Below the pieces are notes generated by a model. It was not told the DNA's origin. It worked only from the letters and a program-made list of their open reading frames with translations, and searched no databases. Of a stretch of 64,000 nucleotides of DNA, positions 1-18,297 are shown one piece after another. The DNA is from an uncultured Thermoplasmata archaeon (lineage in GTDB: Archaea; Thermoplasmatota; Thermoplasmata; Lutacidiplasmatales; UBA184): assembly GCA_963749195.1 (NCBI GenBank), contig CAVVLX010000007.1:278861-342860 (forward strand), in the 5' to 3' direction. The translations under genes were made by a program, and so were the position numbers. The first letter of the stretch is position 1. The number at the start of each line of letters is the position of its first letter.

Positions 1-70
1 TTCCCGAGGGAGAACGAAGCGTTCGGACTTTATCAACCTCATCGTTGACAAAATCGACAAACGACTCGGC

Positions 71-445
71 TCACCCTCGCCGAGCCACGGTGGTCGAGCG
101 TCGCTTCTCCCGGAGCCAGGATTTCGCCCCGACCAACGTTCCCCACGTTCGTTTCGTCGCGATCTGCCAAGGCTCTCCGTTGGGGGAGGTCACGGCTCGA
201 TTCCACGCATCGCGAGAGTGAAGGGCGGTCCGCTGATCGACTTCCACGATGGCCCGCGTAGCTTCGGCGCGGATGACGCGCACCCGGACGATCGGACCGG
301 TGAGTCCTCGAAGGAGGGTGGAGAGCGTATCTTCCCACCAACGGATCGAGGGAAGAAATCGAGACGCCCCCGCCACCTCGAGCCCGAGGTAGCGGGGACG
401 ATGGGAACGGTTACCGGACGAGGTCGATGACTTCCTCGGACTCAC
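71..445 (-). CDS. Rpp14/Pop5-like RNase P protein component
   Basis: 124 aa; RPRYLGLEV N-terminal motif, RAIVEVD and TKRTWGTL (cf. T-x-x-T-S-G-T-I of Pop5); overlaps the ftsZ 3' end. Confidence 0.6.
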   Translation of the reverse strand: MSPRKSSTSSGNRSHRPRYLGLEVAGASRFLPSIRWWEDTLSTLLRGLTGPIVRVRVIRAEATRAIVEVDQRTALHSRDAWNRAVTSPNGEPWQIATKRTWGTLVGAKSWLREKRRSTTVARRG

Positions 446-1544
446 CGGTGGCGTAGCCTCCCTTCTGTCCGAGGAGGCTCGTCGCGCGCACTCCGGTGAT
501 GATGAGGAGCACCTTGATGGTGTTCTCCATCTCCGGACTGTTCTCGACGGAGCAGCCCCAGATGATCCGGGCGCGCTTGGAGATTTTTCCGCCGACCAGC
601 GCCGCGGCCTTTTCCGCCTCGGAGACGGTCATCGTCGGTCCGCCAATGACGCGGACCAGCGCGCCGGTGGCATCCTTGAGTTCGACGTTGCCGAGCAGGG
701 GAGACGTCAGGGCCTCGGTGACCGCCTCGGTCACGCGATCGGTGGCGCTCTCGCTCTCGCCGAGTCCAATGAGCGCCACACCGCCATCCTTCATGACGGT
801 CAAGATATCGGCGTAATCGAGGTTGACCAATCCGGGCCGCGTGACAATTTCGGTGATCCCTTTGATCGCGGTCATCAAGACCGCGTCTGCGAGCTTGAAC
901 GCCGCGTCCAAGGGCATCCGGGGTACGAGCTCCAACAGCTTGTCGTTCTGGATCACGATCGTCGTATCGCATACGCGCCGCAGTCGCTCCAGGCCATCTC
1001 GGGCCTGCTCCATTCGAGCCGCGCCCTCGCCGGCAAAAGGGAGGGTAACAACGCCCATGGTCAGCGCACCGGCTTCCTTGGCGAGCCGAGCGACCAAGTG
1101 GGCCGACCCGGTCCCGGTTCCGCCGCCCATACCTGCGGTGATGAAACAGATGTGTCCTCCATTCAGGAACTGGCGGAGTTCCTCCTCGTTCTCGCGAGCG
1201 GCCTCTTCCCCGATCTCCGGGCGGGCCCCCGCTCCGAGGCCTTTGGTCGCTCGACGCCCGATGAGGATCTTCCGGGGGGCATGAATCGTCAAGAGATGTT
1301 TGGCGTCCGTATTGATCGCGCACATCTCGGCGCCTTGGATCCCTTCCTCGACGCATCGGTTGATCGTGTTCGATCCACCGCCGCCGCAACCGACGATGCG
1401 AATGTTGACTTTCAGAGCCTCGGCCAGCTTGATGAGCTCCGCGTCATCCGCGCTCGCATACGCCGGCGCTGCCGGCTTTTTCTCCTCGACCAGGGCCTGG
1501 TTCTCCTGGTGCTTGGCAATCGCTTCCTGAATGATGGATTTCAT
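411..1544 (-). CDS. ftsZ: Cell division GTPase FtsZ
   Basis: VGCGGGGSN, NTD, GMGGGTGTG tubulin signature, NLDYAD T7 loop. Confidence 0.97.
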   Translation of the reverse strand: MKSIIQEAIAKHQENQALVEEKKPAAPAYASADDAELIKLAEALKVNIRIVGCGGGGSNTINRCVEEGIQGAEMCAINTDAKHLLTIHAPRKILIGRRATKGLGAGARPEIGEEAARENEEELRQFLNGGHICFITAGMGGGTGTGSAHLVARLAKEAGALTMGVVTLPFAGEGAARMEQARDGLERLRRVCDTTIVIQNDKLLELVPRMPLDAAFKLADAVLMTAIKGITEIVTRPGLVNLDYADILTVMKDGGVALIGLGESESATDRVTEAVTEALTSPLLGNVELKDATGALVRVIGGPTMTVSEAEKAAALVGGKISKRARIIWGCSVENSPEMENTIKVLLIITGVRATSLLGQKGGYATGESEEVIDLVR

Positions 1545-1610
1545 CGTTTTTGCCTCGCTCTGTTTGTCAGACGAGCGTCATACGCTCTGGCGACCAACTC
1601 CGTTGAAAGC

Positions 1611-1624
1611 TACTTAAACGTTCG
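1611..1624 (-). promoter_or_regulatory. Putative ftsZ promoter (BRE/TATA)
   Basis: Minus strand reads CGAACG-TTTAAGTA about 70 nt upstream of the ftsZ start; abuts the first target duplication. Confidence 0.5.
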
Positions 1625-1633
1625 CCCTGACGG
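1625..1633. repeat. 9-bp target-site duplication, copy 1 (CCCTGACGG)
   Basis: Identical 9-mer at 1625-1633, 9332-9340 and 12315-12323, each directly abutting an element end. Confidence 0.85.
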
Positions 1634-1648
1634 GAAGGTGTCGGAGTA

Positions 1649-3004
1649 TTACCTCGAGTGTTGGGATAAAACTACAGGCGACTTGGCTGGCGGGGAATTT
1701 ACCGACAGCAGCGTCTGCACGGGGCCGGAAAGGCCCGCCGGGGCATCTGGGTATGCCCCTTCTGTTGGCATCAGGAAGTCTGGCAGGACCCCCAACTCGA
1801 GCATGGCGTGGATGAGCATTCGAATGTTGTGGGCAATCGCCTTGCAAAACAGCTCGTTTACTTGGGCATCAAAATTCCGGGAGGCAATGGTCTCGTCCAA
1901 GATTTGCTTGATCGAGCCGAAGGTAGTCTCTACTTGGGCCCGATTCCCGTAACGCTCGTCGAACTTATCCCGGTGGTAGGTGAAGAACAAGAACATTTTG
2001 TGGTAGGCCGGGCTTCCCTTGGATTCACCTGTGGAGTTCGACTTGAAGGGGATGTACGCCGTTGCTCCGAGCTCCTCTGCAATGTCGAAATTCTTCCGTG
2101 ACTTGTAGGCCCTGTCCGCGTAGACCTCTTTCAGGTTGAACCCGGCTTTGAATGCCCGCTCTAGTAGAATCGAAAACCGGGGGGAGTCCCCCGCAGTCCC
2201 TTCCGTCACATCCATTGCCAGGATCGCATGAGTCCGGACTCCCACCAGAGCGTGCACCTTGAGCCAGATGTTTTCGCGCGAAGGGGCGTACTTCTCCTTC
2301 CGGTAATAGTGAAACCGGGTCGTCCGGAACCCAGTGGAATCGACAGCGCACCGGTTCTCGATTGCCCTCAAAGGGAGGGTGGATCGCTCCAGCATGCCGA
2401 AAAGGGAGGCGTTGACTTCGGAACGGCAGAGGAGGTCTGAGGTCATTCCCCAGTGAGGAACGGAGTCAATCTGACCCTTCTCGGCGGCAGCCACTCGATT
2501 CTCGTGGGACCGCCGGCAGGAGAATCCAGAGTAGACTTTCTGAATGGCGCAGAAGAGCTGGTCCCTCAGTGGAATTGGCGGTCGTCCTGCTTTGTGGGGA
2601 TCCCGTCCCGGCTCCGCAACTCCAGCACATAACTCCCGTAGCAAGACAGGAAACAGGCGCCCCTCCTCCTTCTGAGCCTGGTTGTAGATAGGCCAGTCGA
2701 CCGGGGTCCGGCGGCCCGAGCGGGGGGAAGCGAGGTTTGGAGGATTGCGCGCGGTTTCCTGAATCCAGCTCCTAACTAGGAAGATGTGTTTGCAAGGTAC
2801 GAGTCGCTCATGGAAATCCGGGCAAGTACAAGATTCGGAGAATCCCGGAAGCCCTACACCTTCAACCTGATAGGTGACAGCGCCAGATTGAGATACCACA
2901 AGGAACTTCCCGCGCGTCGAGGTCTCCACAAAAGGGTGTCCGTTACGCAGCATTTCCTGCGCCCGGGTTTCACGACCCGTGATCGCTTCGGAATCTGGGG
3001 CCAT
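1649..3004 (-). CDS. DDE transposase (IS4/IS5 superfamily, IS903-like) with N-terminal SWIM zinc finger
   Basis: SWIM CTCPDF...CKH; DDE triad AVDSTGF / YADRAY / YGNRAQVETTFGSIK (Y-x2-R-x3-E-x6-K); likely start MAPDSE at 3004 (ORF track extends to 3199). Confidence 0.9.
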   Translation of the reverse strand: MAPDSEAITGRETRAQEMLRNGHPFVETSTRGKFLVVSQSGAVTYQVEGVGLPGFSESCTCPDFHERLVPCKHIFLVRSWIQETARNPPNLASPRSGRRTPVDWPIYNQAQKEEGRLFPVLLRELCAGVAEPGRDPHKAGRPPIPLRDQLFCAIQKVYSGFSCRRSHENRVAAAEKGQIDSVPHWGMTSDLLCRSEVNASLFGMLERSTLPLRAIENRCAVDSTGFRTTRFHYYRKEKYAPSRENIWLKVHALVGVRTHAILAMDVTEGTAGDSPRFSILLERAFKAGFNLKEVYADRAYKSRKNFDIAEELGATAYIPFKSNSTGESKGSPAYHKMFLFFTYHRDKFDERYGNRAQVETTFGSIKQILDETIASRNFDAQVNELFCKAIAHNIRMLIHAMLELGVLPDFLMPTEGAYPDAPAGLSGPVQTLLSVNSPPAKSPVVLSQHSR

Positions 3005-3122
3005 ATGTCGTCCTATATGTTGACCTATCACTTCGGAATATTTAAGGTTTGAACCTATATTTTGCCGCACATGTAGACCACAACCTTCATGTAACTCCGT
3101 CCCATGGACTGGTGAGGATTCC

Positions 3123-3305
3123 TTGTCTAAGCCAATCGAATCCAAGCTCGTAAGGGCGATCAAACGCTCTGACTCGCTCCGGACCACCGTTCCGTCCACG
3201 GTAGTCGACGTCTTAGGGATAGACGCCGGGGATTCACTTCGGTGGACTCTGGATCTTAAAGGGTCTCGAGTGATTGTTACGAAATCGTCCGAGAGGACAA
3301 GGTAG
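3123..3305 (+). CDS. AbrB/MazE/SpoVT-family DNA-binding protein
   Basis: 60 aa, SLRTTVPSTVVDVLGIDAGDSLRW swapped-hairpin pattern; divergent from the transposase. Confidence 0.8.
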   Translation: MSKPIESKLVRAIKRSDSLRTTVPSTVVDVLGIDAGDSLRWTLDLKGSRVIVTKSSERTR

Positions 3306-3326
3306 GGCCCTTGGACTAGGTTTCAA

Positions 3327-3851
3327 TCAGCTCTTTGCAAGATCCGACTGGGGCTCGGGCGACCTCCGGTGACGAAGGTCCCTCGCTACGGATTCCCCCA
3401 AGGCAGTTAGGCGGTAGATTTTCAATCGACGCGGTTGGCCTTGGACGTGCCGACGGTCGACCTCCACCACCTTAGCCGCCTCTAGTCGAGACAGGACCTT
3501 GGCGAGAGTTCCCTGCCGGATTCCAAGCTTTTCACCCATTCCATTCTGGGTGTATCCAAGACGAGCTACCTCGTCGTTGCTCAGTCGACCGAGCGATGCG
3601 ATGTGGGTGATTACCCTACCAGCCGTATCCGCATACTTAGAGATGTTGTTCCGGGCCACCGAGGGGGATGCGACGGCTTTCAAGCCGTCAAGATCACTCG
3701 TATCGGGGGGACTTGGAGATTCGCCCTCCGTGGGAGGCTCGCTGGTTTTAGGACTCGATTCACGCTGAAGACGACCTCGAATGAACGCATGGGCCGCCCA
3801 GCCGGTGAACGCACCCCCCACGCCAGCGATGGCCGCATCGAGCCAGTTCAA
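3327..3851 (-). CDS. Membrane-tethered MarR-like winged-HTH protein
   Basis: N-terminal hydrophobic helix (LNWLDAAIAGVGGAFTGW); C-terminal TQNGMGEKLGIRQGTLAKVLSRLE...IYRLTALG wHTH; TTG start at 3851 preferred. Confidence 0.7.
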   Translation of the reverse strand: MNWLDAAIAGVGGAFTGWAAHAFIRGRLQRESSPKTSEPPTEGESPSPPDTSDLDGLKAVASPSVARNNISKYADTAGRVITHIASLGRLSNDEVARLGYTQNGMGEKLGIRQGTLAKVLSRLEAAKVVEVDRRHVQGQPRRLKIYRLTALGESVARDLRHRRSPEPQSDLAKS

Positions 3852-3950
3852 ATCGTCCTCTAGGTCTGTAGCGGGCGGGAAGCAGGTAGTATGCGGCCGC
3901 ACCTCCAGGCTGGAACAATCAGATTGTGGCGCGAGTCCTCAAGCTCCACG

Positions 3951-6146
3951 TCAGCGGCTCCTATCCATGATTGACGGCTCTTTCTCGTCGGTCAACTCTT
4001 CGATCCATTTTTCCCCTTCTCGACGTTGGGAACGCTTGTAGAACGAGCTCGCTCCCCAGGCGCCCGCCACGATCATAGCGATTCCCCCGGCGACGACGAA
4101 CTCGATATACCAGCTCGACCCCATCCCGCTCGCCGCCGAATACTCTCCGACTTGAATTGCTAACGTACTCATGGAGCGGTTTCCCCGGCCGTCAGTGACC
4201 GTCAGCACTACCGCGAAGTGCCCGGATAAGGCGTAAGTGTGGCTCGGGTTCTGTTCCGTAGAAATTGAACCATCACCAAAGTTCCAGCTATACGCGTACG
4301 GCGGGATTCCTCCCTCCGCTTGACCCACGAAACTTACCATGAGCGAAGACGTTCCGCTGCCCACGCTCGATCCTGCGATTGCTTGCAGCATGATCGAAAT
4401 GTTGAGCTCTGCGTGGATGGCATCTCCCGCCGCGTCGGCCACCGTCACTTCGGAGATAAACGGCCCATTCGTAGAGTAGATGTGAGTAATGCTCGAAAGG
4501 TTACCCCCCACTCCTCCATCCCCGAAAGTCCACGAATATGTATACGGTGGGTTCCCGCCGATTACGTTGGCGGAGAAATTAACTGGGCTATCGAGGATCG
4601 CGGGATTAGGCGTGGCGTCGATTGAGGTGATCGTAAGCGGGATGAAGACGTGAACTCGGAGTGAAACGTGCGCAAGATGTCCCGCACTGTCGTTTAGCCA
4701 CAATTGGACGAGATAGAATCCCACGGTCGAATACACGTGCGTTGGGCTCATGGAAGTGGATTCGCCGCCGTCACCGAACAGCCAGTCGTAGTTGAGCGGA
4801 GCCACTCCCCCTTTGAAAGAGACGGTAAAATTGGTTGGAGAGAGAGGCTCCGGAGCTGGCGGGGCGTTGGCAATGCTTACCCCAGCCAGCGGTGGAGCGA
4901 CGCTCCAGATCCACGTATCATTGATTATTCCGAAGCCTGTCCGCTGAAAAATTCCCCCGAACAAGAGCACGCCAGAATCGAAGGAGTCATTTGCGAAACC
5001 GGCCGCGTATACCCCCACTGGTGACTGGGTGGGAGTCTTGTTGGTCCAGGCTCCGCCAACAAACGACCAGGTATCATTCAATTCAGTAATCGGCGTCCCG
5101 TTGCCCCCAAATCGAGGGGATCCACCGAACAGAATCACGTCACCCGATGTGTCGTCGTATGCTACTTGAGCCCCATACCTCGGGGAAGGCGAGGTGATTA
5201 AGGTTGCAGTAATGTTAGACCACTTCCCGGCTGAGAACACCCAGGTGTCTCCCAATATTCGTGCCGAACCGTCGACGAAGCCGCCGAACAATAGTATGTA
5301 CCCATCATGGGCGTCATAAGTCAGCGCGAACTGTTCTCTGAGACTCGGTTCCGGGGATAATGTCGAATTGTTTCCACTCGTTACAGGTGTCCACACCCCC
5401 CCATGGTAAGTATAGGTGAGCTCCGCTTGTCCTAAATCGGAGTTGAACATACCAAGCAGCAGGACGTAGGCATCCGCGGAGTCGTAGGCCATTCCGACCC
5501 ATTCCGGGTAGCTCGGCGCGCCCGTGACCGCAAGTTGGTGCCACCGCCCTCCGACGAATGCCCAAGTATCGTTCGTGGGGGTGATCGAGTTCACTCCTCC
5601 GAACGCGAGGATGTAATGATCAGAAGCGTCGTACGTCATGTCCATTCCATCCCGAGCAGACGGCGACGTACCGGCGGTAGAGGTGATGTTTGACCAGGTT
5701 CCACCGGCAAAAGTCCAAGTGCTGTTCAAGGCACGGGCGGAGTCCCCGAGACCCCCGAACAAGACCACGTAATGGTCGACTGGGTCGTAACACATGGACG
5801 CATATTCTACATCGGGAGGACTTGGAGACGAGGTAAGATTCGTCCAGAACGGCTGAGCGGGGGCAGCTTGGCCTGCTGGAGTGGAAGCGCTTCTGCAGTC
5901 TAAGCCAATCCGATCTGACCCGGTGCACGTCATCGGATTGCCTCGCGCCGGCCCGCCTCCCGTAGCCAACGAAGCGTCGGCCTCTCTGATAAGAGAGGTA
6001 GACAGGGGAGGTCCGGAAGAGTGCGCGATTCCAAGCCACTGTATGGGCTGAGGCGCAGAAGGTACCGCGAGCAGTAAGATTGGAAGTACGACAACCATCA
6101 CGGTAAGAAATATATCTTGGGTATCGCGGGACCGCGCCATTTCCAA
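3951..6146 (-). CDS. Surface protein with Kelch-like beta-propeller, 3 PKD domains and C-terminal TM anchor
   Basis: Signal-like N terminus; repeated YD...LFGG...DTW blades; three W-x-FGDG...HxYS PKD motifs; TM helix near the C terminus. Confidence 0.85.
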   Translation of the reverse strand: MEMARSRDTQDIFLTVMVVVLPILLLAVPSAPQPIQWLGIAHSSGPPLSTSLIREADASLATGGGPARGNPMTCTGSDRIGLDCRSASTPAGQAAPAQPFWTNLTSSPSPPDVEYASMCYDPVDHYVVLFGGLGDSARALNSTWTFAGGTWSNITSTAGTSPSARDGMDMTYDASDHYILAFGGVNSITPTNDTWAFVGGRWHQLAVTGAPSYPEWVGMAYDSADAYVLLLGMFNSDLGQAELTYTYHGGVWTPVTSGNNSTLSPEPSLREQFALTYDAHDGYILLFGGFVDGSARILGDTWVFSAGKWSNITATLITSPSPRYGAQVAYDDTSGDVILFGGSPRFGGNGTPITELNDTWSFVGGAWTNKTPTQSPVGVYAAGFANDSFDSGVLLFGGIFQRTGFGIINDTWIWSVAPPLAGVSIANAPPAPEPLSPTNFTVSFKGGVAPLNYDWLFGDGGESTSMSPTHVYSTVGFYLVQLWLNDSAGHLAHVSLRVHVFIPLTITSIDATPNPAILDSPVNFSANVIGGNPPYTYSWTFGDGGVGGNLSSITHIYSTNGPFISEVTVADAAGDAIHAELNISIMLQAIAGSSVGSGTSSLMVSFVGQAEGGIPPYAYSWNFGDGSISTEQNPSHTYALSGHFAVVLTVTDGRGNRSMSTLAIQVGEYSAASGMGSSWYIEFVVAGGIAMIVAGAWGASSFYKRSQRREGEKWIEELTDEKEPSIMDRSR

Positions 6147-6425
6147 TTCCCAATGGTCTATTGCATGCTTCCGGCTTAAGAACCGTTTGTGGATTTACGA
6201 CATAGATATTCCGAGTCAGGAATATTGCTAACCTTTCCCCCATGTCAGGATTCTGTTCGCGAACTCGCATTTGCTGTCTTGGGCGGAGGGTCGTCGATTA
6301 TCCCGTGAAAATTGTTGCAAATCTCGCAAAAAAGTAAGCCATTAGAGAAGTGAAGCTCCGGTCACTACTATCCATCTCAACTGAAATTAACGGGATTTGT
6401 GTCAAAAAGGCGTTCGTAAGGCAGC

Positions 6426-7807
6426 TCAAAGAGCTTGTTTTGTAATCGTCGGAGCGACCGTGTATGTAATCGTGATCGTGTCTCCGACCCGAAGGACAAG
6501 ACACCCTGAAGTCAGCCCAACTACTGTCCCGTTCCGTTCGATTTTTGAAACCGTTCCCCCGGAAACGAGGACGGCTTCATTGAACCCGTCGCCGTTGGGG
6601 TACGCGACGTTACTTCCGGGAGCGGGTACCGCCACGCCCGGGTCATTTGGACCCCGACCGGCCAACGTACCGGAAAAGACTCCAGGCTGACTGTCGTCCG
6701 TGAACCTAAGATATCCAAACTGGGTCCCAGAGCTAGCAAAAGATATCCCTGCAAATACAAATTGGCAGCGACGAAACTCTATGTTATAGACAAATCCCGG
6801 GTCCGATGTTCCAAAGGTGTCGTCGATGAACCCCCCGCTAGCCCCCCCACCGGGTTACCTGAAGTGGCGCCGGAATCAAAAATGCAGTCCTCCACATGTA
6901 CGTCGTGTAGACTTCGAGACTGTGTGGGATTTATTCCGCTTGCGTTGCCCTGAAACTCTAGAACTGACCCGCTAACCCCATTATTCTTGAACCGGCTACG
7001 CCGGACAACGATCTGGGAGCAGTCCCCCGCGTTAGCGTGGAGAAAGCAATTAGAGCAATCGACTGACGAAGAAAGTGCTGACGCATTAAGATCCACGTCC
7101 TCAATCGCAATCTGACGGGCGGAGCCCTGCACAACCAATCCAGATGCGCTAGTCGCCGAGGCGGACCAATTCGCCGAAATTCGCGATACCAAGACGTTGC
7201 GAATTTGTTGGAGATACGTAACCCCAGATTGATAATTGTTTACACCGATGTAGAACGCAGTATTGCTTACACCGTTGATGACGAAATCGTCGACCACTAT
7301 GTCTTGGGAAGGCGCGGGTGCCGAGACCGAATCGTGGAGGCCCCAATTTGAGATGTGAATTGTATTCGTCGGGGCAGTGCTGGATAAACCGTTCTGCTGA
7401 ATCACGCAGCCGTTGCCGTACCATCGGCAGCGGGAGAAGTTCTGCATGTTAGCCGCGGTTCCCCCACCTCCGATGTGAATGACGAACGCGTATGCGCTGC
7501 TAGATGGATCGATTAAGAGGACGGCTCCTACCCCGAAGGTGATTGTGCAACCAGGTTCGAACATGACCGTCTGATCGTTACCGGTTTGGACGATGGAGCT
7601 GGTGAACACATACGTTCCCCGCCGAGCATAAACAAAACCTCCTGTTGTGGCGATGCCGTTCAATGCTTCTTGGATGCCTGAAGTGGACGTGCCCGGTGTG
7701 TCGGGGCCATAGTCATCCCCGTCGTTTGGGACCGTAGATTGCCCATTGGCCAATCCCTTAGGAGAGACTGTTACGAAGGGTGTTCCGGCGGTGCTAAACC
7801 ATGCCAT
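6426..7807 (-). CDS. Beta-helix (pectin lyase/tailspike-like) protein, one frameshift at the C7 run 6842-6848
   Basis: GPDTPGTSTSGIQEALN...GGFVYARRGTY cap followed by Asn/Ile-rich coils; adding one G joins ORF 6779-7807 in frame to FIDDTFG...TITYTVAPTITKQAL ending at 6426 (about 460 aa). Confidence 0.65.
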
Positions 7808-8004
7808 CTAGGGACTCCCGAGACTTTGTGACTGAGCCGAATTTGATTTCTAAGCCGTCAAGGAATTTGCAGGGCCGAACAGACTCGTCCGCCCTTGGGG
7901 TCCAGATGGACCCCCACGAATGTCTCCCGTTAGTCGCACCGAGGATACCTGCATAGACGTCGCCGGCCCCGGTCGCACCGGAGGTCAATTCAGCCGTCAT
8001 CTCT

Positions 8005-8220
8005 TCACTCCTCGAAAATGTGATCGAGGACGCGTTTGGCATTTAATCCGACGAGAATCCCAGCGCCGAGGGCCACCGCCGCGCCGGCGGCCGCATTCCA
8101 GTCGCTCTCAGCGACGTGCGTAGTCACGTACCCACCACAGGGGCGGCACCATCTTTCGGATCCTGGTACCCCTAGACCCAACGCGGCTCCGCAGGCAGCG
8201 CATTCGAGTTCATCGCTCAT
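8005..8220 (-). CDS. Small Zn-ribbon protein with C-terminal hydrophobic helix
   Basis: CAAC...CRPC followed by AAAGAAVALGAGILVGL; start MSDELEC. Confidence 0.5.
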   Translation of the reverse strand: MSDELECAACGAALGLGVPGSERWCRPCGGYVTTHVAESDWNAAAGAAVALGAGILVGLNAKRVLDHIFEE

Positions 8221-8531
8221 GGATTGAACTTTATTCAGATGTTGTTCGTGCCATGCGCGAGGACCACAATCGACACCCACCAAGAAGTGCGAGGAGCAAG
8301 ATCTCAACCACCTGCACGCCCGCGCGTTCCGTCGAAGTTGCCCATCGACCCGCGGTTACCAGCATGGTCTCCTTTATCGTCCCTAAAAGGACTTTCAGGA
8401 CCAACAGTACAAAAGCATCCTATAACCTAGTTGTCGTCGACAACGCGACAAGTATGGGCGGGTACATACGACCTGGGTGATCCGTTCGTTACCACAGTAA
8501 CCATTTAATCGACACCCGGACATCGAGCTTT

Positions 8532-8708
8532 ATGGACGCGCAGGAGCCCGTGACTGCAACCGTAACCCGCGGAGGAAAGATCCACCTTCCGGCCGAGGTC
8601 ATGCGAAATCTCGACGTGAAAGTAGGGCAGCAAGTCGTGTTCTTCCTGAAGCCCGGAAAGGCACTCGTTCAGCCAATGTCAGCTGTGTTGTCGAAACCGG
8701 TCTGGTAG
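8532..8708 (+). CDS. AbrB/MazE/SpoVT-family DNA-binding protein (58 aa, below the ORF-track cutoff)
   Basis: Hand translation MDAQEPVTATVTRGGKIHLPAEVMRNLDVKVGQQVVFFLKPGKALVQPMSAVLSKPVW; TTTAAT box about 25 nt upstream. Confidence 0.8.
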   Translation: MDAQEPVTATVTRGGKIHLPAEVMRNLDVKVGQQVVFFLKPGKALVQPMSAVLSKPVW

Positions 8709-9331
8709 AGAAGCACGTCGGAGCTCGAGCTCCAGTCGACAAACTTTTTCCTTGCATATCAGACAGTTTTTGCGACAGTAGTGGTGCGTTGGACTACGGA
8801 ATGAGGGACTCCACGGACGGTCGGAGGTAACTGATTATTTGCGGGGTCGGAGGACCCTGTAGGTGATCTACAGATGTCCCGGTCCGGTCGATTCGGTTAC
8901 AGGTGAAATGACTCGGTTGCAGGTGTGGGATTTCGTCACAACTTCCAACGACGCTATCCCGCGGTGTAGCCTCCGCCGTCAGGGTAGTCTCTGACCCCAC
9001 GTAGATTATCACGGTGATCGAATGCCCCCTCGTCGGGGCATTTCTCACATCGAACGAAGGTGGGGTGATACCAGCAGCGCCAATTCCTGATTCCCATTTT
9101 CCGCGTGTGGACTATTAGGTACTCTTGGTCGGGCAAATCTGCTTTCATGCCTACAGAGGCCCTAATCATGGTCGAACCTAAGAGTCTTCGTTGGACAATC
9201 TCCCTCTCCAGCAAACTTAGCCCAGCCGCGGGGTGGGTCGTCGAAATCCCTCCCCATATGTACCAATAAAACTACTACCCGCCGTGCACTTTACCAATAA
9301 AACTACACGGAGGATATTTACCGACAACTTC

Positions 9332-9340
9332 CCCTGACGG
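9332..9340. repeat. 9-bp target-site duplication, copy 2 (junction of elements 1 and 2)
   Basis: ATTTACCGACAACTTC-CCCTGACGG-GAAGGTGTCGCTAAAT. Confidence 0.85.
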
Positions 9341-9437
9341 GAAGGTGTCGCTAAATCACCTCGAAGAAGCCGATAAAACGACAGCGAAAACGGCCCAGAT
9401 CGATTAAACGACTGCCAGGAGAATTAACGGCACCTTC
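9341..9437 (+). repeat. 97-bp end module (MITE-like, own inverted ends), left copy
   Basis: Begins GAAGGTGTCGCTAAAT, ends AATTAACGGCACCTTC; 83/97 identical to 12218-12314 by hand alignment. Confidence 0.9.
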
Positions 9438-9699
9438 ATCATGGAAGGAGCCACCATGTACTGGGGTTTCTCGTTGAAGAAGCATGAGGAAGTCTACAAG
9501 ATCCCGAGAGAAGGACTTCGGGTGACCTTCCCCAAGTTAATGGAGGGGTCGGGTCTCAGGGATTCGTTGAAGTGGACGTTGGGAGAGGGTTGAACGTTGA
9601 CTCTTTGAACAATATGCCCTCGCAGCGAGACCTGTCACTAACTCAGCCCCGCAGTCCTCAGGTCCATCGATTTTGAATGAAGAGAGGCTGGCTGCGATT

Positions 9700-10290
9700 C
9701 TATAGAAACTGGGTGGGAGCGTTTTCGTAAACCGAAATAGTCGCATTGAACGTGATGGGAGGACCGGGAGTTGGAGACGGAATCCAAGCCGCCCTCAAGA
9801 TTAGTGAATATTGACCCAATGGCACGACCTGCGACAGTGAACCTATTGTAACCTCCAAGATGTCATGCGAAGATCCCCAAATCCCAACCGCGGTCGCCCG
9901 GATCGATGTGACTATCACCGACCCGTTTGGAGAACTCCAGTTCAGCTGAATGGAGCATTCAACAAAGCTTCCAGGAGTGTGTTCGTTGCAGTTAAGGTCG
10001 AAGACCACTACAATGGTGACCGGGATTTCTCCGCTCGAGCTTTCACCTACGGTTGCGTTGTCGAGAGCGATTGGAACCATGGTACTCTGGTTCACGTTAG
10101 TCACGAGTTCTTCCTGAAGTAGACCGCCCGTTGCTGTCGACGGTTGAATGCGTGGAACCGTCAATGAAACGACAATCAAGACTATTGCAACAGCTACGGT
10201 CAAAGTGATTAGGAAAACCCACTTCAGGCGGCGATCGCCGCGTGGGCGACCATTTTCCTGAGGCCCGGGACCGCCCCTAGCTGAACTCAT
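9700..10290 (-). CDS. Membrane-anchored hypothetical protein (cargo)
   Basis: Basic N terminus, one TM helix, beta-rich ectodomain; co-oriented 10 nt after the peptidase gene. Confidence 0.65.
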   Translation of the reverse strand: MSSARGGPGPQENGRPRGDRRLKWVFLITLTVAVAIVLIVVSLTVPRIQPSTATGGLLQEELVTNVNQSTMVPIALDNATVGESSSGEIPVTIVVVFDLNCNEHTPGSFVECSIQLNWSSPNGSVIVTSIRATAVGIWGSSHDILEVTIGSLSQVVPLGQYSLILRAAWIPSPTPGPPITFNATISVYENAPTQFL

Positions 10291-10300
10291 CCTTCCTTCA

Positions 10301-11953
10301 TCACGGCGCAGGGTAAGTACGTATGGTGAACTCGTACGTCTTGGTCAGGATGAGAGGCGGGACGTACCAGTCCAGCAAGTTGAATCCTTCTCCAAGCCAT
10401 GATTCGAGAATGCGTAGGCTCAGATTATCGTACACGGTCCCGTTGTCGGCAAAATAGAGGTTGAACCACGTTATGTTCCCGACGTTTGGAGAAGGGTTCG
10501 ACGCGGATTGAGTCGGGTTCTCCGCGATCCACTCGGCGGAATTCACGTTGGGGGCAGAAACTCCGGATTGCCCTTTCTTGTCTGGCATGAATGGAATAGG
10601 ACCAGGTCCCCCATTGTTGGAGGTCCCCCAGACTTCCTTTCCGTTGAATGAAATCGAGAAATAGCCCAGCTCTCCTTTTCCGCCTGAAGTCGAGTTACTG
10701 GTGACAAGCATGTAGATAGTGATGTTGTTGTGATACCCGGAGTAAGTTGGAAAAAAGTTATAGAGGAATTCAGATCCCGGATTATCATACGGGTAGTAGC
10801 AAGCCGCAATGCAACTGCCAATCCCATGGGGGTCGTAGATTTCATAAAACAGGTTCGCGCATGTACCCCCCTGTCCATTGTTGCAGTTTGAGCTATAGTC
10901 GAACTCGATGCCAGCTTGCCACAGACTCTCGTTGCCGATGAACCCGCCTATTCCAATCCAATACACGATTGGCTCGTCTGTTCCGCTTCCGGTCTGAAGA
11001 ATTGCCCCTGGCATGGTAAACGACCCTTGAGCGGATGTGACGTCAGAACCCACGTATGAAAGCCCGCCCCAGGTCTGCGTGGTTGTATTTGTTCCGTTCT
11101 GGGTTTCCAAGTAAAGTACCCCATTTGACGCCATCAAATTGATGGTGTTTTGGGATACCGAGGTAGGCGACAGGAATTTCACGTTGAGCCCCTGCCACTG
11201 CCAAAAAGCGTAAAATGACTCCGTGTAATTTACCGGTTTTATCCCATATGGATCGCCTAGACACAAGCCAATCGAAGCGCCTGAGGACACGGTCCTACTT
11301 CCCCTTCCGAAGAACGCCGTACTTGTGAAGACGACTTGGCCCACGCTTTGCGGGACCTCGGCTTTTAGGGGGGCAGTACAGGATGAAGCGGGGCCGTTTA
11401 GTTGTAGCGCTCCAGAGCTTCGGCCAGATCCGGCAGTTACCCAGTACGGACTCGGATTGATGACTGCCCCTTGCGAACACGTCGGATGCGTGCCGAGGCA
11501 TGAGTCTCCCGAAGCAGTGAAGTTGATGAAACTGTAATTTGTATCCATAGCCGCCTTAAGCGTGAAGGTACAGAGCGATTGATCGCAGATATCAATCGCG
11601 TTGGTGGCCGAGGTATTGGCACATTCTTTCACCCCGCTCAGCCAAAGGGTTCCATGCGCACAGCTGAAAGTAATGTAATCGCCTGGAAGAATCGGCGGTA
11701 CAGAGGCTACCGGGCTTGTGGCCGCTGCCAGCGGTTCGCTTGATAAAGTCATGGCGAGGAGGGCAATGAGTAGTAGGGCTATGGATGGCCATCGGGTTCT
11801 ATGCGCGTGGGCAGGGGCATAGTCGCGAGGACAAGAATCGCGGTCAAATTTACGCTCTGGCCGCTCGTTTTCGATTGCTTCTAGCGATGAACCCTCCGGC
11901 GCCTCCTCACGTCGCGAGGCATCCCGATCTGGCGACGCACCCGGGATCATCAC
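10301..11953 (-). CDS. Secreted multidomain protein with C-terminal G1 (A4, eqolisin-type) glutamic peptidase domain
   Basis: TWGG, VTSAQGSFTMP, YWIGIGG, LWQAGI (catalytic Gln), SAEWIAENP (catalytic Glu); signal-like helix and Cys-rich N-terminal region; start uncertain. Confidence 0.7.
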   Translation of the reverse strand: MMIPGASPDRDASRREEAPEGSSLEAIENERPERKFDRDSCPRDYAPAHAHRTRWPSIALLLIALLAMTLSSEPLAAATSPVASVPPILPGDYITFSCAHGTLWLSGVKECANTSATNAIDICDQSLCTFTLKAAMDTNYSFINFTASGDSCLGTHPTCSQGAVINPSPYWVTAGSGRSSGALQLNGPASSCTAPLKAEVPQSVGQVVFTSTAFFGRGSRTVSSGASIGLCLGDPYGIKPVNYTESFYAFWQWQGLNVKFLSPTSVSQNTINLMASNGVLYLETQNGTNTTTQTWGGLSYVGSDVTSAQGSFTMPGAILQTGSGTDEPIVYWIGIGGFIGNESLWQAGIEFDYSSNCNNGQGGTCANLFYEIYDPHGIGSCIAACYYPYDNPGSEFLYNFFPTYSGYHNNITIYMLVTSNSTSGGKGELGYFSISFNGKEVWGTSNNGGPGPIPFMPDKKGQSGVSAPNVNSAEWIAENPTQSASNPSPNVGNITWFNLYFADNGTVYDNLSLRILESWLGEGFNLLDWYVPPLILTKTYEFTIRTYPAP

Positions 11954-12217
11954 CAGACCCGCAAACGCGGGCCTAGTGATTGTGACTAGATCGGTGGGCC
12001 GAGGTCATAATGGTTGTGAAGTAAGCTCGATTTTCGTCTGAAAGCGGGAATCTTAGCGACCAAGGCTGGACGTCGAAATTCCGTCGGGCGATGATTCGCG
12101 AAAGTCACTTCCCCCTAAGGTTGGAGTTTCAGCTCAGGAGGAGTGGTTTCTGTGCGCCGCACGGTTTTCAGGCAACGCCGGGTGCGGAATTTGGTTGTAG
12201 CACAACCTAGTCGACGC

Positions 12218-12314
12218 GAAGGTGTCGCTAAATCACCTCGAAGAAGCCGAGAAAACGACAGAGAAAACGATCCAAATCGATTAAACGACATACGGTAGAT
12301 TTAGCGACACCCTC
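12218..12314 (+). repeat. 97-bp end module, right copy
   Basis: Begins GAAGGTGTCGCTAAATC, ends GATTTAGCGACACCCTC; direct repeat of 9341-9437. Confidence 0.9.
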
Positions 12315-12323
12315 CCCTGACGG
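12315..12323. repeat. 9-bp target-site duplication, copy 3
   Basis: CCCTGACGG directly after the right end of element 2; host-like GC content resumes. Confidence 0.85.
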
Positions 12324-12523
12324 GAACCGTCCCCTAGTCGCGGGATGAATCATCTCGCGTTTCAGGTGTCCCATTTCGCGGGAGAGCCTCCGTCGCGAAG
12401 GCGATCAGTTTCCTCCAGCGGATTCGATTCCGATGGGAATTTGGTCCCCGTCCCCTCGCGTCATACCGATGGTCCGATGCTCGCATGAGAAGTAGTTGTG
12501 AACTCGGAACCTTTCCGAACGGC

Positions 12524-12721
12524 TCAAACGGCTCCTTGCGAACCGTTCTGAATTCGGGTATCGTGAAGGTTGAACACCGACCATCGATGACAAATGGGGC
12601 ACGCCATGTACCGGCTTCTTCCCAACCGAAACGCCGTGAACGACGCGCCGGGTACGTACTCGAAAACAAACTCCTTCCCGCACTTCGGACACTTAAGGGC
12701 CGACTTCCAAACCAGCCCCAT
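12524..12721 (-). CDS. Small Zn-ribbon protein (65 aa)
   Basis: MGLVWKSALKCPKC...CPIC; GAGGGGGAG SD-like sequence upstream. Confidence 0.7.
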   Translation of the reverse strand: MGLVWKSALKCPKCGKEFVFEYVPGASFTAFRLGRSRYMACPICHRWSVFNLHDTRIQNGSQGAV

Positions 12722-12722
12722 C

Positions 12723-13085
12723 CTACTCTCCCCCTCGCTTTCCGCTCGTACTCCTGCGAGCGTTCGTGAGGGAGCGACGCAACCGCGCGAAGCCCCTTTC
12801 CAGCTGACGCATCGCTGGGACGAATATCGGATCCGAGTACACCGGGCGGAGGCGATCCGAAGAAACGATCCCTCCGGGCAGAATCCGCTTTTCGGTTCCG
12901 GCGGCCTCGGTGTAGAGCTGCCAATCGGCAGCCGCGCGAATCGCCTTACGTCGGATACTCCAGAGCAGCTTTCGCCGGTACGTGCGATTGGGAAAACGGG
13001 CCGCCAGCGAGGGTTCCATGGCGGTACCGGCACGCGTCGCGGTTACCACGGTAAAGAGGTAGTCGCGTTCTTTCCGACTGAACAT
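12723..13085 (-). CDS. Hypothetical basic protein
   Basis: 120 aa ORF coupled to the Zn-ribbon gene; TTATC TATA-like box just upstream. Confidence 0.45.
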   Translation of the reverse strand: MFSRKERDYLFTVVTATRAGTAMEPSLAARFPNRTYRRKLLWSIRRKAIRAAADWQLYTEAAGTEKRILPGGIVSSDRLRPVYSDPIFVPAMRQLERGFARLRRSLTNARRSTSGKRGGE

Positions 13086-13241
13086 CGCGATGGATAAGGC
13101 GAGATCCCCCGTATAGCCGTTACTGATTTCAGTAACGCCACCTGCGACGGCCCGTCATCGCGCCTCCCCCCTTCGTTAGCCGACCGAGCCCGAATTGAAA
13201 TCGGTTCCCGGGGGGATCCGGTCCGGATCGCGTTGGTTGGT

Positions 13242-13697
13242 TCAGGAGGTTGACGGGGTTGGAGGCGAGGACCATCCCATTCGGCCGCCCATCATTGCCA
13301 TCGCCGCGAGCAGAAGCTGGGCCCAGAACGCGACCAGAAATGCGATTCCCATGATGACCGTGTCGACCGGGGGATTCGGCGTGGAACTCACGAAGGCCAT
13401 TCCGGCAAACCCGGCGGTCAGAATAGCGGCGAGCATGACTACCGAAAGACCGATGAACCGGATCTGCCGCGTGAACGCGGCGACGATGAGGACGATGATG
13501 GCGACCACGCCCAAAACATCTCCATTCACGTAGTGAAGATTGATTGCCGGAAACGCTGTGTTGTTGGTGAATCCGTTCGCGGGAGCGTAGGCGTTGGTGT
13601 AGAGACCCGCGATGTATTGGATCACCAGAAGGATGCCCGCGATCGGGATCAAGACCCTCAGCGCCCGATAAGGCCACGTCGATTTCGTTGGGGGCAT
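13242..13697 (-). CDS. Four-TM membrane protein
   Basis: Four hydrophobic segments; start MPPTKS. Confidence 0.7.
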   Translation of the reverse strand: MPPTKSTWPYRALRVLIPIAGILLVIQYIAGLYTNAYAPANGFTNNTAFPAINLHYVNGDVLGVVAIIVLIVAAFTRQIRFIGLSVVMLAAILTAGFAGMAFVSSTPNPPVDTVIMGIAFLVAFWAQLLLAAMAMMGGRMGWSSPPTPSTS

Positions 13698-13847
13698 CGC
13701 GCGGGTCGACATTCTACAGGGATATTAACTCCGGCTGGCAGTGGGGTCGCGTCCAGCAGCGGTCCCGGAGGGGTGGACCCGATGCTCACGTTGTCCAAAC
13801 GCACGCAACGGCCGAGAGTTTATCCGACCCGAGGCTCGTGGGTACCC

Positions 13848-16800
13848 GTGGATTCGTATTTTCGATCGATTGAGCACTCGGTGGATCTCGCCTACCAGGT
13901 TGCCCAACGAGCTCGGGATGAAGGACTGGATCCCGAACGATTCCCGGAGATTCCGCGCGCCGAAGATATGGCGATGCGCGTGGAGAAGTTACTCGGCCAT
14001 CTCCCCCTCGCGGGAATCTCAGGAGAGATTCGCGAACTGGCCCAACAGATGCCCCGGGAAGAGGTGGCGTTTACGATTGTCCGACGGGTCCTGCGAGATC
14101 CCGCTCGAGGCGACACGCTGGAGTCCCGAGTCGACACCGCGCTACGGCTCGGTCTCGCGATCCTCACCGAAGGGATCCTGGTCGCTCCCCTCGAAGGGCT
14201 GGCCGAAGTCCACGTTCGGGGGGGTCGAGGCGGGGAATCGTACATCGAACTGTATTACGCCGGCCCGATTCGAGCGGCCGGTGGCACGGCCCAAGCCTTG
14301 TCGGTGCTGTTGGCGGATGTCGTGCGACGCGATCTCGGACTCGGCGTTTACCACCCGGAGCCCGCGGAGGTCGAGCGCTACAAGGAGGAAATTCCCCTCT
14401 ACAAGCAGCGCCAACACTTGCAGTACGTTCCGAGCGCCGAAGAGATCGAACTGGTCGTCCGAAACGTTCCGGTCTGTATCTCGGGAGAGGCCACCGAAGG
14501 CGATGCCGAGGTCTCTGCCTTCCGCAATCTCTCCCGAGTTCCGACGAATGGGCTCCGTGGTGGTGCCTGTTTGGTGATTGCCGAAGGACTTTGTCAAAAG
14601 GCGCCAAAGCTACGAAAGGTCGTGGAGAAGCTCAACCTCCCCGGATGGGAGTTCCTTCAACAGCTGGGACTCCACCAGAGTGGGGACGGGGAAGACGCGG
14701 GGATTCCGAAGTACCTCACGGACGCGCTCGGAGGACGCCCCATCCTGGCCCACCCGAACCATCCGGGCGGTTTTCGTCTCCACTATGGTCGAGCTCGGAC
14801 CACCGGCCTCGCCGCGTGTGCAGTCAACCCGGCGACGATGGTCGTGCTCCGCAAATTCGTGGCGATCGGCACGCAGCTGAAGTTGGAATACCCCGGAAAG
14901 GCCGCGGCGATCGGCGTGTGCGACACGATCGAAGGCCCGATCGTCGAACTGCACGACGGAACGGTCACGGCCGTTCACGACAGCGAACGTGCGTCCGAAC
15001 TCCTGCCCCTGATCTCTCGCATTCTCGACCTAGGCGAGCTGTTGATCTCGTTCGGGGAATTTCTCGAGAACAATCGCGTCCTCGTCCCTGGTGCGTACTC
15101 GTTCGACTGGCATGCCCAAGAGCTCCGCGCGGCCGGCGTCCCCGAGACTAACGAAACCCTCGTCCCTTCCTACGAGGGCGCGGTCGCGATTGCCCGTCAG
15201 TACAACGTGCCCCTCCACCCTCGCTTCCTCTTGTTTTGGCACGACCTGAGCTCAACAGAGATTCGCGCGCTCAGCGAGTTCGTCGAAGCGAACGGACGAT
15301 GGGAGGATGGCGCGCTCCAGCTCCCGATTGACCCTGAGCAACGGCAATTGTTGTTGCGGCTCGGTTTCTTGAGTTCGCCGCTCCCCGATGATCGCGTGCG
15401 GGGCGAACCCGAGTCGAGTGCGGCCCTGGTCGGCGGTCTGGGATTAGCCGTCGCTGGGATGACGGTGATCCGCCAGTCTCCTCTCGATCCGGTAGAGCTA
15501 GAGCCCCTCGATTACGTGAGCCGCCTAGTCGGGGCGCGAGTTCATGCTCGGGCGCCGTCCCGCGTCGGAGGTCGAGTGGGCCGTCCCGAAAAGGCACGTC
15601 AACGCTCGATGACTCCCAACGTGCACGCGCTCTTTCCGCTCGGAGAGTCCGGCGGCGCGAAACGCTCGGTCTCGGAATCGGTTCGCCGAACGATGGCAAG
15701 CGGGGTGGCGGTGTCGCTAGGTCGTCGCCGATGCCCGGAATGTGGAAAGAGTACCGTCTGGCTCAAATGCACTTGCGGCACCCATACCGAACCGACCGGA
15801 GAAATCGTCGTCGAAGCGCTGCCCGTCGCTCCGATATGGTCGGATGCCCTTCGTCGGTTGCATCTCAACAGGACGCCCGAGGTGAAAGGCGTCAAGGGCC
15901 TCACCTCCCCCGGTAAAGTTCCCGAGATGATCGAGAAGGGAATACTTCGGGCGGCGCACGGGATCTCCGTCTACCAGGATGGCACCGCCCGATTCGATCT
16001 CACCGATCTGCCACTCACCCACTTTCGGCCGCGCGAGATCGGGCTGGGGGTGGAGGAGGCGAAGCTCCTCGGCTACGATCGGGATTGGTCGGGCGCCCCG
16101 CTCACCGACCCGGATCAACTGGTCGAACTTGCTCCCCAGGACATCGTCGTATCTCGAACGTGCGGCGAGTACCTTGCCAGCCTGGCTCGTTTTGTCGACG
16201 ACGAGCTGATGCGCATCTACAACCTCGACCCGTTCTATCGGATCCAGCGACCCGAGGATTTGCGGGGGGCCATCGTCGTCGCGCTGGCACCGCATACTTC
16301 GGGCGGGGTCGCGGGCCGCATTCTCGGGTTTACGGAAGCCGAGGCGTGCTTCGCGCATCCCGTGTTCCACGCCGCGAAGCGACGGAATTGCGACGGAGAT
16401 GAGGATTCCGTCACCTTGCTCCTCGATGCGCTCCTGAATTTCTCCCGATCTTATCTTCCGGCCAGCCGAGGCGCGTTGATGGACAAACCCCTCGTCCTCA
16501 CGACCCGGCTCCATTCCACGGAGGTCGACAAGGAGGCGCACAATCTCGATATCATGACCCACTACCCGCTCGAGCTGTATCGGGCGGCGCTCGCGGGCCA
16601 GAACGCGAAGGAGATCGAGAAGTGGATCGAAACGATCGGCCATCGGGTGGGATCCTCCCGCCCGCTTTCCGGCTTCGGATTCACGCACGACACCACGGAC
16701 GTCGCCGGGGGGCCCGTGCGTTCGGCATATCGCGAAGCCGAGTCGATGAACGGGATCGTCGCCCAATCGCTGGCCTTGACGTCCCAGATTCGGGCGGTCG

Positions 16801-17195: not shown

Positions 17196-17253
17196 CCCCG
17201 AATCTCGCGGGGTCCAAACGCCCAAATACGTCGCAGGGGCTTCGCAAAGTCGC

Positions 17254-17355: not shown

Positions 17356-17372
17356 TCTCGACGCGCGTCGCG

Positions 17373-18196: not shown

Positions 18197-18297
18197 GAAG
18201 ATTGAGTGCCAAACATTCTGGTGGGATAAAAAGGGCGGCTGTGCCGATCGTGTCGGAGACCGAAACGCTATCATCAAAAGTCGGCTCGATGACTCCG

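Follow-up and report, generated by a model that had tools for sequence, protein, structure and literature searches.

The stretch of DNA analysed here, termed the window, comprises 64,000 nucleotides from an uncultured Thermoplasmata archaeon (assembly GCA_963749195.1, contig CAVVLX010000007.1, positions 278,861 to 342,860) and carries, immediately upstream of the ftsZ promoter, two transposons with cargo genes that stand in tandem on copies of a single 9-bp target. The position is very probably a real site-specific hot spot that has been filled by repeated transposition. The account as a whole, in which cargo transposons encoding a DDE transposase, and here designated type A, insert at this hot spot in a site-specific and orientation-biased manner, with recognition of the sequence on the promoter side, is advanced with moderate confidence. 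The arrangement looks like an undescribed single-protein, site-specific transposon system. The source genome is metagenome-assembled (2.36 Mb in 10 contigs, 89.6% complete), and comparisons at the level of the genus were made with a draw of 60 relatives (61 genomes including the source), which are not independent of one another. Throughout, G codes denote genomes, with G000 being the source genome, and L codes denote loci or metagenome contigs.

The tandem elements and their target

A preliminary description of this DNA, made from the sequence alone, had reported three copies of the 9-mer CCCTGACGG lying flush with related inverted ends, in the order duplication, element 1, duplication, element 2, duplication, and both the ends and the layout held up. 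The copies at 1625, 9332 and 12315 each abut an element tip, such that perfect 9-bp repeats surround element 1 (7,698 bp) and element 2 (2,974 bp) alike, and a 20-nt end motif is matched six times in the window (at 1634+, 9331-, 9341+, 9437-, 12218+ and 12314-) compared with an expectation of 0.02. The 9-mer itself is present five times versus 1.11 expected, a number attained by 1 of 100 shuffles; the two other copies, at 8976(-) and at 20286(+), the latter within a long open reading frame (ORF), are without adjoining tips and were taken as chance occurrences. Across the whole 2.36-Mb genome just the six window ends are supported, two extra motif matches with four mismatches (C3:15071 and C6:59543) not being picked up by the end profile described below. 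The G+C content is 0.50-0.59 within the elements and 0.62-0.63 outside them. The principal features, in window coordinates, are as follows.

411..1544, minus strand: ftsZ (Pfam Tubulin 1e-45, FtsZ_C 3.9e-23), the promoter of which adjoins the target
1570..1624, minus strand: ftsZ leader and putative core promoter, with TATA-like TTTAAGTA (1611-1618) and BRE-like CGAACG (1619-1624)
1625..1633, plus strand: target-site duplication copy 1 (CCCTGACGG)
1634..9331, no strand assigned: element 1, autonomous type-A cargo transposon, 7,698 bp, transposase-side tip 1634-1653, far tip 9312-9331
1649..3199, minus strand: transposase, 516 amino acids (aa), at the ftsZ-proximal end of element 1, with a SWIM module (about aa 68-153) and an IS5/IS903-like DDE core (aa 284-459)
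9332..9340, plus strand: target-site duplication copy 2, common to both elements
9341..12314, no strand assigned: element 2, non-autonomous composite, 2,974 bp, outer tips matching at 17/20 positions, perfect 9-bp duplication
9341..9437, plus strand: miniature element mA, 97 bp, with both tips
12218..12314, plus strand: miniature element mB, 97 bp, with both tips, 85% identical to mA and in direct orientation
12315..12323, plus strand: target-site duplication copy 3
12322..13100 (extent approximate), minus strand: probable decayed type-B element, tip GGAACCGTCCCC.., overlapping the final bases of the 9-mer
13833..17195, plus strand: DNA polymerase D large subunit (DP2; PolC_DP2 domains 1e-102 to 2e-126), the neighbour on the far side of the island

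Immediately before the duplication there is always the conserved TAAAC(G/A)TT(T/C)G, which is assigned to the ftsZ core promoter, and the promoter is therefore left intact. This 10-mer occurs eight times in the genome, and once if N9 plus GAA is made to follow. The leader GACGAGCGTCATACGCTC and the promoter stretch are conserved in 29 relatives and at 39 anchored sites; among the latter the 9-mer varies between species and its position is constant. An ftsZ orthologue is present in 61/61 genus genomes and DP2 was found in 59/61. In the 31 of 61 genomes that have both genes on one contig, the distance from the site to DP2, worked out by hand, is at least 167 bp, a value from an unpublished genome that is followed by 311 bp, and at most 14.3 kb in all but one genome, G032. 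There, on contig C2, it amounts to 88.8 kb, which represents either a very large island or a rearrangement. No tRNA gene was found in window positions 1-20000, and no Rfam family at gathering score in 1-14000, where the single weak match (2931-2983) scored 21.5 vs 46.7 bits, and a tRNA or known RNA gene was rejected as the target. A scan of 1400-1800 for bacterial-type promoters returned 0 sites, the model being bacterial and the host archaeal. The leader GACGAGCGTCATACGCTC itself (window 1570-1589, and the same place in L023-L051) includes a short palindrome and is nearly invariant genus-wide while its surroundings vary; it could serve in regulation or represent an RNA element.

Type-A tips read GAAG[G/T]TGT...AATC, and the two ends are asymmetric, the tip being accompanied on the transposase side by an inner box in inverted orientation and on the far side by inner boxes in direct orientation; the tips of element 1 match at 14/20 positions. 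The transposase had been described as confined to element 1, and indeed neither of the two ORFs of element 2 contains a transposase domain. Element 2 is bounded, as had been claimed, by target-site duplications and related ends, and is in addition a composite bounded by two 97-bp miniature elements, which the preliminary description had missed. The inner flanks of mA and mB, ATCATGGAA and AGTCGACGC, differ while the outer 9-mers are identical, which indicates that the unit of movement was the whole composite, with the outer tips as its ends. It has the make-up of a composite transposon, in which two copies of a mobile unit bracket cargo and the duplication is confined to the outer ends. In each miniature element, one end is of the transposase-side type and the other of the far type. 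The element 2 tips are not the same as those of element 1 (a by-eye figure of about 19 of the first 25 bases); element 2 was presumably mobilised by a transposase supplied in trans. Among the 60 relatives searched, the miniature element was found at the G015 island only.

The right flank, from 12324 onwards, resembles the decayed tip of a third element belonging to the second type of transposon found at this site (type B, with tips GG[A/C]ACTGTT..). The tip at 12322 is identical to the type-B tip of G030 at 15/22 positions in a by-eye comparison, and the interval 12322-13100 yielded weak colinear tblastn pieces of a type-B transposase on the minus strand (best E 6e-4). The relic is also 91% identical over 46 nt to the one that closes an array in G011, and is probably the same relic, in which case the window would contain an older type-B remnant with two type-A elements stacked against it.

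Occupancy of the ftsZ position in related genomes

Many species of the genus have an element at this same position beside the ftsZ promoter. The elements differ from one another, as does their cargo; both orientations are represented, and the 9-bp duplications are perfect. The 39 anchored sites in relatives start with a type-A-like tip in 9 cases, with a type-B-like tip in 12, with GAAC.. and no longer tip in 6, and otherwise in 12, several of which start like degenerate type-A tips (the script gave 10 type-A-like tips, and G078, which reads GAACCC.., was shifted to the GAAC.. group, raising it from 5 to 6). Complete elements with a perfect 9-bp duplication at the ftsZ position were found in four relatives.

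G004: 9,424 bp
G010: about 4.9 kb, non-autonomous
G001: about 4.6 kb, non-autonomous
G015: about 8.7 kb, non-autonomous

It had been proposed that relatives be checked for an empty site and for arrays with other cargo upstream of ftsZ, and both were found. G020 constitutes a clean empty site for the element of G001, in that the two flanks follow each other on its contig with about 80 nt between them (as against about 90 nt in G001) and CGTTCAGAG is present once; the flanks of G001 align to those of G020 at 98.7% and 82%. With regard to arrays, CCCTGACGG stands at four junctions in G011, namely promoter/type A, type A/type-B relic, type B/type B and type B/relic, and in G013 type-B tips follow all four copies of its 9-mer, the first base of which is changed in copies three and four. 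G011 is the closest relative of the source genome, with a flank that is 95% identical and the same 9-mer, yet the element there lies in the inverse orientation and encodes a transposase of 54% identity, indicating that the insertions in the two genomes are independent. The suggestion that an array is built up by transposition, through the repeated insertion of large cargo elements at one site, is hence supported by the relatives, by the G020/G001 pair and by the G011 and G013 arrays. That two unrelated insertions fell on the same 9 bp in the absence of any target preference is next to inconceivable, given the use of the position by different elements in many species and the six end matches where 0.02 were expected.

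Three side observations concern these loci. In the G004 element (L060, G004:C5, about 7860-7880 in locus coordinates), CGCAGAGCG, which matches 8/9 of the local target, is followed by a type-B-like tip; it is possibly an old target junction carried along as a trace of stack fusion, which is suggestive only, and the sequence that precedes it is not a clean type-A end. In G013 (L090, G013:C6, 191-3305) the type-B transposase beside ftsZ is split by an unrelated DDE_Tnp_1 element (761-2107), and IS3-like rve genes lie further along the array. In G012, one contig (C22 or C78) stops exactly at the target and the 117-nt promoter stretch recurs at the end of the other, with 78% identity to the window, which points to strain variation or to an assembly break at the hot spot.

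Assembly itself could feasibly have produced the stack, through a chimeric join of strain variants carrying different elements at the site. The source genome is metagenome-assembled, and the locus is evidently hard to assemble, since ftsZ and DP2 are on different contigs in 23/61 genomes (one gene was not found in 7). However, the two left junctions have just 19 nt in common, the contig that carries the stack is 1.0 Mb in length, and equivalent junctions of end, 9 bp and end are present in independent assemblies and samples (G011, G013, L121 and L125), making an artefact of this nature highly improbable.

Type-A relatives were gathered from three sets, comprising the genus genomes, species-representative genomes and metagenome contigs. 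Thirteen distinct autonomous elements were retained, L119 and L120 being identical to L118 and counted once with it, and L123 and L127 being left out because their junctions lie beyond the retrieved stretch (L127 matches G004 at equal identity and E-value). Eleven of the 13 are at the ftsZ site (window, G011, G004, G065, L084, L086, L117, L118, L122, L124 and L126), two adjoin another tip, and none (0/13) is at another identifiable locus. The site-specific reading, for which a comparison of transposase homologues had been proposed in the preliminary description, is supported by this count. The transposase end is oriented toward the promoter in 9/11. In the remaining two, L121 and L125, that tip is type-A-like. 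In L121 (a metagenome contig, 2980-3560) the type-A transposase end abuts this second tip and ftsZ is convergent; it is the sole non-promoter case, and its arrangement is possibly due to rearrangement.

The end profile, which was built from 25 ends and run against the 61 genomes, produced a similar distribution. All 17 matches at E <= 0.11 are in the ftsZ-DP2 interval, including the three that were new (two in G064 and one in G006) as opposed to training sequences (14/17), and outside it four weaker matches were obtained, with E values (0.15-0.36) no better than noise. The type-A transposases group as a single clade that is distinct from relatives whose tips are of the IS903 type (GGCTTTG..). 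Elements of this sister clade also generate 9-bp duplications, and extend over 3.1-12.2 kb, and hence are cargo-bearing as well, at scattered targets; examples are provided by L069, L072, L075, L078 and L079 (G002, G013, G030 and G025). At the four off-site targets that were reconstructed an A/T-rich box lies within about 15 nt, on the transposase side in 2/4; by a rough estimate this is near chance in a genome of 62% G+C, and a general attraction of the clades to A/T-rich, TATA-like boxes was not upheld.

Type-B transposons show a comparable preference for the site. The example in G030 is an 8.5-kb element with a transposase of 540 aa that has a DDE_Tnp_IS240 (IS6-type) core. All copies at least 65% identical to that of G030 (7/7; in G030, G073, G008, G081, G013, G077 and G002) are beside the ftsZ site with the 3' end of the transposase gene toward the promoter, whereas one full-length copy of 59% identity, and more distant ones, are located elsewhere. 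Stacked type-B tips have a 9-nt spacing in L112 and at most junctions, in a frame one base off that of type A.

A number of observations weigh against promoter-side recognition by a site-specific type-A enzyme. Two of the 11 type-A elements are in the opposite orientation, and L121 sits 0.55 kb past the 3' end of the ftsZ gene as opposed to at the promoter. The assignment of TATA and BRE boxes at 1611-1624 was made by motif only, and the separation of the type-A clade derives from a quick, midpoint-rooted tree without support values. The N-terminal module of the transposase, considered below, is also present in the GGCTTTG clade, the targets of which are scattered. The evidence is in addition entirely comparative, originating from metagenome-assembled genomes and metagenome contigs, with junctions known from assemblies alone. 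Moreover, junctions of end, 9 bp and end exist away from ftsZ, in L079 and L082 of the GGCTTTG clade and in L112, a distant IS6-SWIM element, and these off-site stacks fit a homing of elements to resident ends at least as well as they fit promoter recognition.

According to this latter explanation, insertion takes place at the outer edge of a related or decayed end, and the ftsZ locus became a hot spot through an old relic inherited in the genus, stacks being the immediate outcome. Both the right flank of the window and the terminus of the G011 array resemble a type-B tip that has decayed, 6/39 sites start with GAAC and no longer tip, and many supposedly empty sites start with GGAAC, which is type-B-like, such that a resident relic could be the true target. 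There is also precedent, as IS3 and IS30 members are reported, in PMC7986276, to insert into inverted-repeat ends, and IS26 next to a resident copy. Conversely, the distal flanks of G001 and G015 start with GACGG or GACGT and have no recognisable tip, as is also true of the empty site in G020; the orientation bias, at 9/11 for type A and 7/7 for type B, is relative to ftsZ and not to the neighbouring element; and the 5-nt GGAAC is too short to specify a unique site. Homing to resident ends is accordingly considered rather unlikely, though it is the alternative to which we attach most weight, and recognition of the promoter side is retained as the preferred reading.

The transposases, their N-terminal module and the cargo

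The SWIM-DDE architecture ascribed to the element 1 transposase in the preliminary description proved correct. The core matches Pfam DDE_Tnp_1 (PF01609) at E 5.8e-22, its score of 78.9 bits clearing the cutoff of 23, and the protein is about 25% identical to IS903B-type transposases; the NCBIfam IS5 equivalog NF033579 (IS5_2) was matched with 116.4 bits against a cutoff of 140, and over aa 244-459 only. The Pfam SWIM score is 17.9 bits in the window transposase (cutoff 19.6) and 19.6 in a type-B relative, and all 16 modules aligned have the CxC...CxH signature residues, C123, C125, C135 and H137. Residues 68-153 are predicted to be compact (pLDDT 78-92) and residues 1-67 to be disordered. The N-terminus (window 3199 region; alignment columns 1-20) has the motif xG(T/I)VVRTE(S)D common to all sequences, with the G and V of xGxVVRTE invariant in the 16, and this motif, although within the stretch predicted as disordered, may be a short binding motif. 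A comparison of the predicted fold of the N-terminal module with the PDB gave 0 matches at E <= 1e-3 among 267 at E <= 10, and a word-based protein search with residues 1-165 gave five matches, all of them close relatives carrying PF01609 or no domain. The SWIM-bearing module was found in 35/251 genomes of the class, representing 13/84 sampled genera (one positive genome is unpublished).

The N-terminal module of the type-B transposases is homologous to that of the IS903-like enzymes (blastp E 1e-13 to 1e-9), and its presence in common on two transposase families is a clear instance of domain shuffling between insertion-sequence families. A tentative extension of the preferred reading, which is possible but to be doubted at present, would have a portable N-terminal targeting module, made up of the conserved peptide and the SWIM domain and placed on two unrelated DDE cores, direct oriented insertion of multi-kilobase cargo to one base-pair position upstream of the promoter of an essential gene, with mixed arrays growing on the promoter side, newest first, and fusing into composite cargo transposons. 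The simpler proposition that the module alone sets specificity was rejected, since the scattered-target GGCTTTG clade has the module too, and module similarity does not track target type.

Alternatively, the N-terminal peptide or the SWIM domain may bind a host protein, such as a transcription factor, TBP/TFB or a replication protein, situated on the divergent promoter region of ftsZ and polD. Tethering of this sort would be in keeping with two unrelated cores, IS5-like and IS6-like, having both the N-terminal module and the position (within 1 bp) in common, with the conservation of a motif in residues 1-67 despite their predicted disorder, and with a position that is fixed while the 9-mer differs between species. 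On the other hand, the module is found in scattered-target clades as well, the fold search provided no informative match, and the promoter-side 10-mer, with eight occurrences per genome, is rare enough to be read directly in the DNA. Tethering to a host factor therefore appears distinctly unlikely, and direct reading of the promoter-side sequence is preferred.

The remaining features of the two elements comprise the cargo genes and one minor end-like sequence.

3327..3902, minus strand: winged-helix regulator-like protein, 191 aa (PadR 1.4e-4, HTH_Crp_2 2.8e-4, both under curated cutoffs)
3951..6146, minus strand: Kelch-repeat/PKD-domain protein, 731 aa (PKD_4 2.4e-38; Kelch families 1e-21 to 1e-14)
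6779..7807, minus strand: 342-aa protein with a weak pectate-lyase-like match (Pect-lyase_RHGA_epim 1.5e-3, under cutoff)
8523..8708, plus strand: AbrB/MazE-like protein, 61 aa (MazE_antitoxin 2.1e-4, under cutoff)
8909..8945, minus strand: weak extra end-like stretch inside element 1, from a regex scan (end profile E 0.66; G000:C7:287769-287805)
9700..10290, minus strand: 196-aa protein of element 2, no family match
10301..11953, minus strand: 550-aa protein of element 2 with a Peptidase_A4-like region (Peptidase_A4 9.1e-9)

The element at the same site in G015 (L089) encodes a Kelch-repeat protein (952 aa) and a weak pectate-lyase-like protein (719 aa), which are the same classes as the element 1 cargo at 3951-7807. 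Defence-type cargo can also be housed in the island, since genes for a DNA methylase (N6_N4_Mtase 2.3e-20) and for a KwaB-like protein (1.1e-7) are present in the type-B element of G030 (L091, G030:C5, about 148-8660).

Relation to known systems and proposed mechanism

The closest parallel in terms of logic is provided by Tn7, which employs a multi-protein machine (TnsA, TnsB, TnsC and TnsD/TniQ) and creates 5-bp duplications. At attTn7, by glmS, Tn7 likewise places large cargo in a site- and orientation-specific manner beside a conserved essential gene that is not disrupted, and forms islands; several Tn7-like elements are described, in PMC4779613 and PMC11014353, as accumulating as an island at one attachment site. 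The ftsZ position has the properties of such an attachment site, being used within 1 bp, with orientations of 9/11 and 7/7 and with arrays in the window, G011 and G013. The machinery is different, however, in that a single IS5/IS903-type DDE protein and 9-bp duplications are found here, and the target is upstream of a promoter as opposed to downstream of a gene end. A Pfam scan of 13 ORF translations (12 of them non-overlapping), which took in the larger ORFs of elements 1 and 2 and left smaller ones outside, identified no TnsA, TnsB, TnsC or TnsD/TniQ family, nor any transposition family beyond that of the element 1 transposase. The system therefore follows Tn7-like logic with different machinery, namely a single IS5/IS903-like or IS6-like protein with a SWIM module.

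The same scan detected no integrase or Cas family. The preliminary comparison with integrons and CRISPR arrays was accordingly apt as to geometry but not as to machinery, the repeated unit here being a transposon duplication with inverted tips, and an island formed by a tyrosine recombinase was rejected. Likeness to the IS903 group, also proposed at that stage, extends to the DDE_Tnp_1 core, with the approximately 25% identity to IS903B-type enzymes, and to the 9-bp duplication, and the sister clade has true GGCTTTG.. tips. It does not extend to the tips, the size, the choice of target or the curated NCBIfam score, features by which that group is defined and in which the type-A elements fail. 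IS903B is a cargo-free element of about 1.06 kb with a 322-aa transposase, and the group normally consists of simple elements of roughly 1 kb with loose target choice, whereas element 1 is 7.7 kb in length, has at least four cargo genes and a 516-aa transposase with a SWIM module, has asymmetric ends with tips that start GAAGGTGT, and is aimed at one target. The IS903B tips GGCTTTGTTGAATAAATC and the window tips GAAGGTGTCG[C/G]TAAATC are alike in the inner TGT...AAATC only.

Mutator-like elements (MULEs) combine a DDE transposase with a SWIM zinc finger and 9-bp duplications; unlike in the MULE/IS256 group, the sole catalytic family matched here is DDE_Tnp_1, and the SWIM module is N-terminal to the core. 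Type-B elements have tips that presumably resemble those of IS26, and they share with the IS6/IS26 group the DDE_Tnp_IS240 core; IS26 also forms arrays and inserts beside a resident copy, according to PMC7986276. Classical IS6 members, as set out in that review, measure 789-880 bp, with 8-bp repeats and an N-terminal zinc-finger extension in a clostridial clade only, and SWIM is not mentioned there. Type-B elements differ in their length of about 8 kb with cargo, in a 540-aa transposase that carries the SWIM module and in the 9-nt spacing of stacked tips.

Among archaeal elements, the section of PMC4779613 on casposons describes tandem pairs parted only by a shared duplication, which are read there as sequence-specific integration, and elements that encode a Cas1 integrase and a family B polymerase. 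These pairs are a precedent for reiterated duplications, which are already known for both casposons and Tn7-like islands from that paper; the scanned ORFs of elements 1 and 2 include neither Cas1 nor a family B polymerase. Simple DDE elements of the IS1202 family are reported to occupy a fixed position and orientation beside dif sites, but these, according to PMC10132070, are 1.5 kb in length, without cargo, bacterial and aimed at recombination sites. The full-text literature searched (supplements, subscription journals and ISfinder being outside it) contained no description of SWIM-bearing IS5- or IS6-type transposases or of transposons homing to ftsZ.

The following course of events is preferred as the most likely. 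A single protein, consisting of a SWIM module and an IS5/IS903-like core with presumed DDE chemistry, would act on the asymmetric ends, read the promoter-side TAAAC(G/A)TT(T/C)G and duplicate 9 bp on insertion. The element tip begins with GAA, like the native triplet beyond the 9-mer, and each insertion would therefore restore the promoter-side junction as a target. The next element to arrive would be placed on the promoter side of its predecessor and add a further copy of the same 9-mer, such that the element proximal to the promoter should be the youngest, with element 2 having arrived before element 1. Element 2, composed of two miniature elements around 2.8 kb, would have moved as one unit from its outer tips, with the transposase presumably acting in trans, and such a fusion of stacked neighbours would be a means by which cargo is captured.

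Multi-protein Tn7-like systems and RNA-guided systems have so far been the main known cases in which large cargo is transposed site-specifically. If the account presented here is true, then one DDE protein that places 3-14 kb of cargo at a single position and in a single orientation would be a far simpler system to dissect and possibly to adapt, and the common N-terminal module is a testable candidate for its targeting domain; were the tentative portable-module reading also true, it would amount to a one-protein archaeal counterpart of Tn7/TnsD homing. For the organisms themselves, the locus shows how an archaeal island can be built, by repeated insertion at one safe site between the essential genes ftsZ and polD, with cargo that includes surface-protein genes and, in the G030 relative, a methylase and a Kiwa-like gene, and it suggests how stacked neighbours may fuse into new composite cargo elements.

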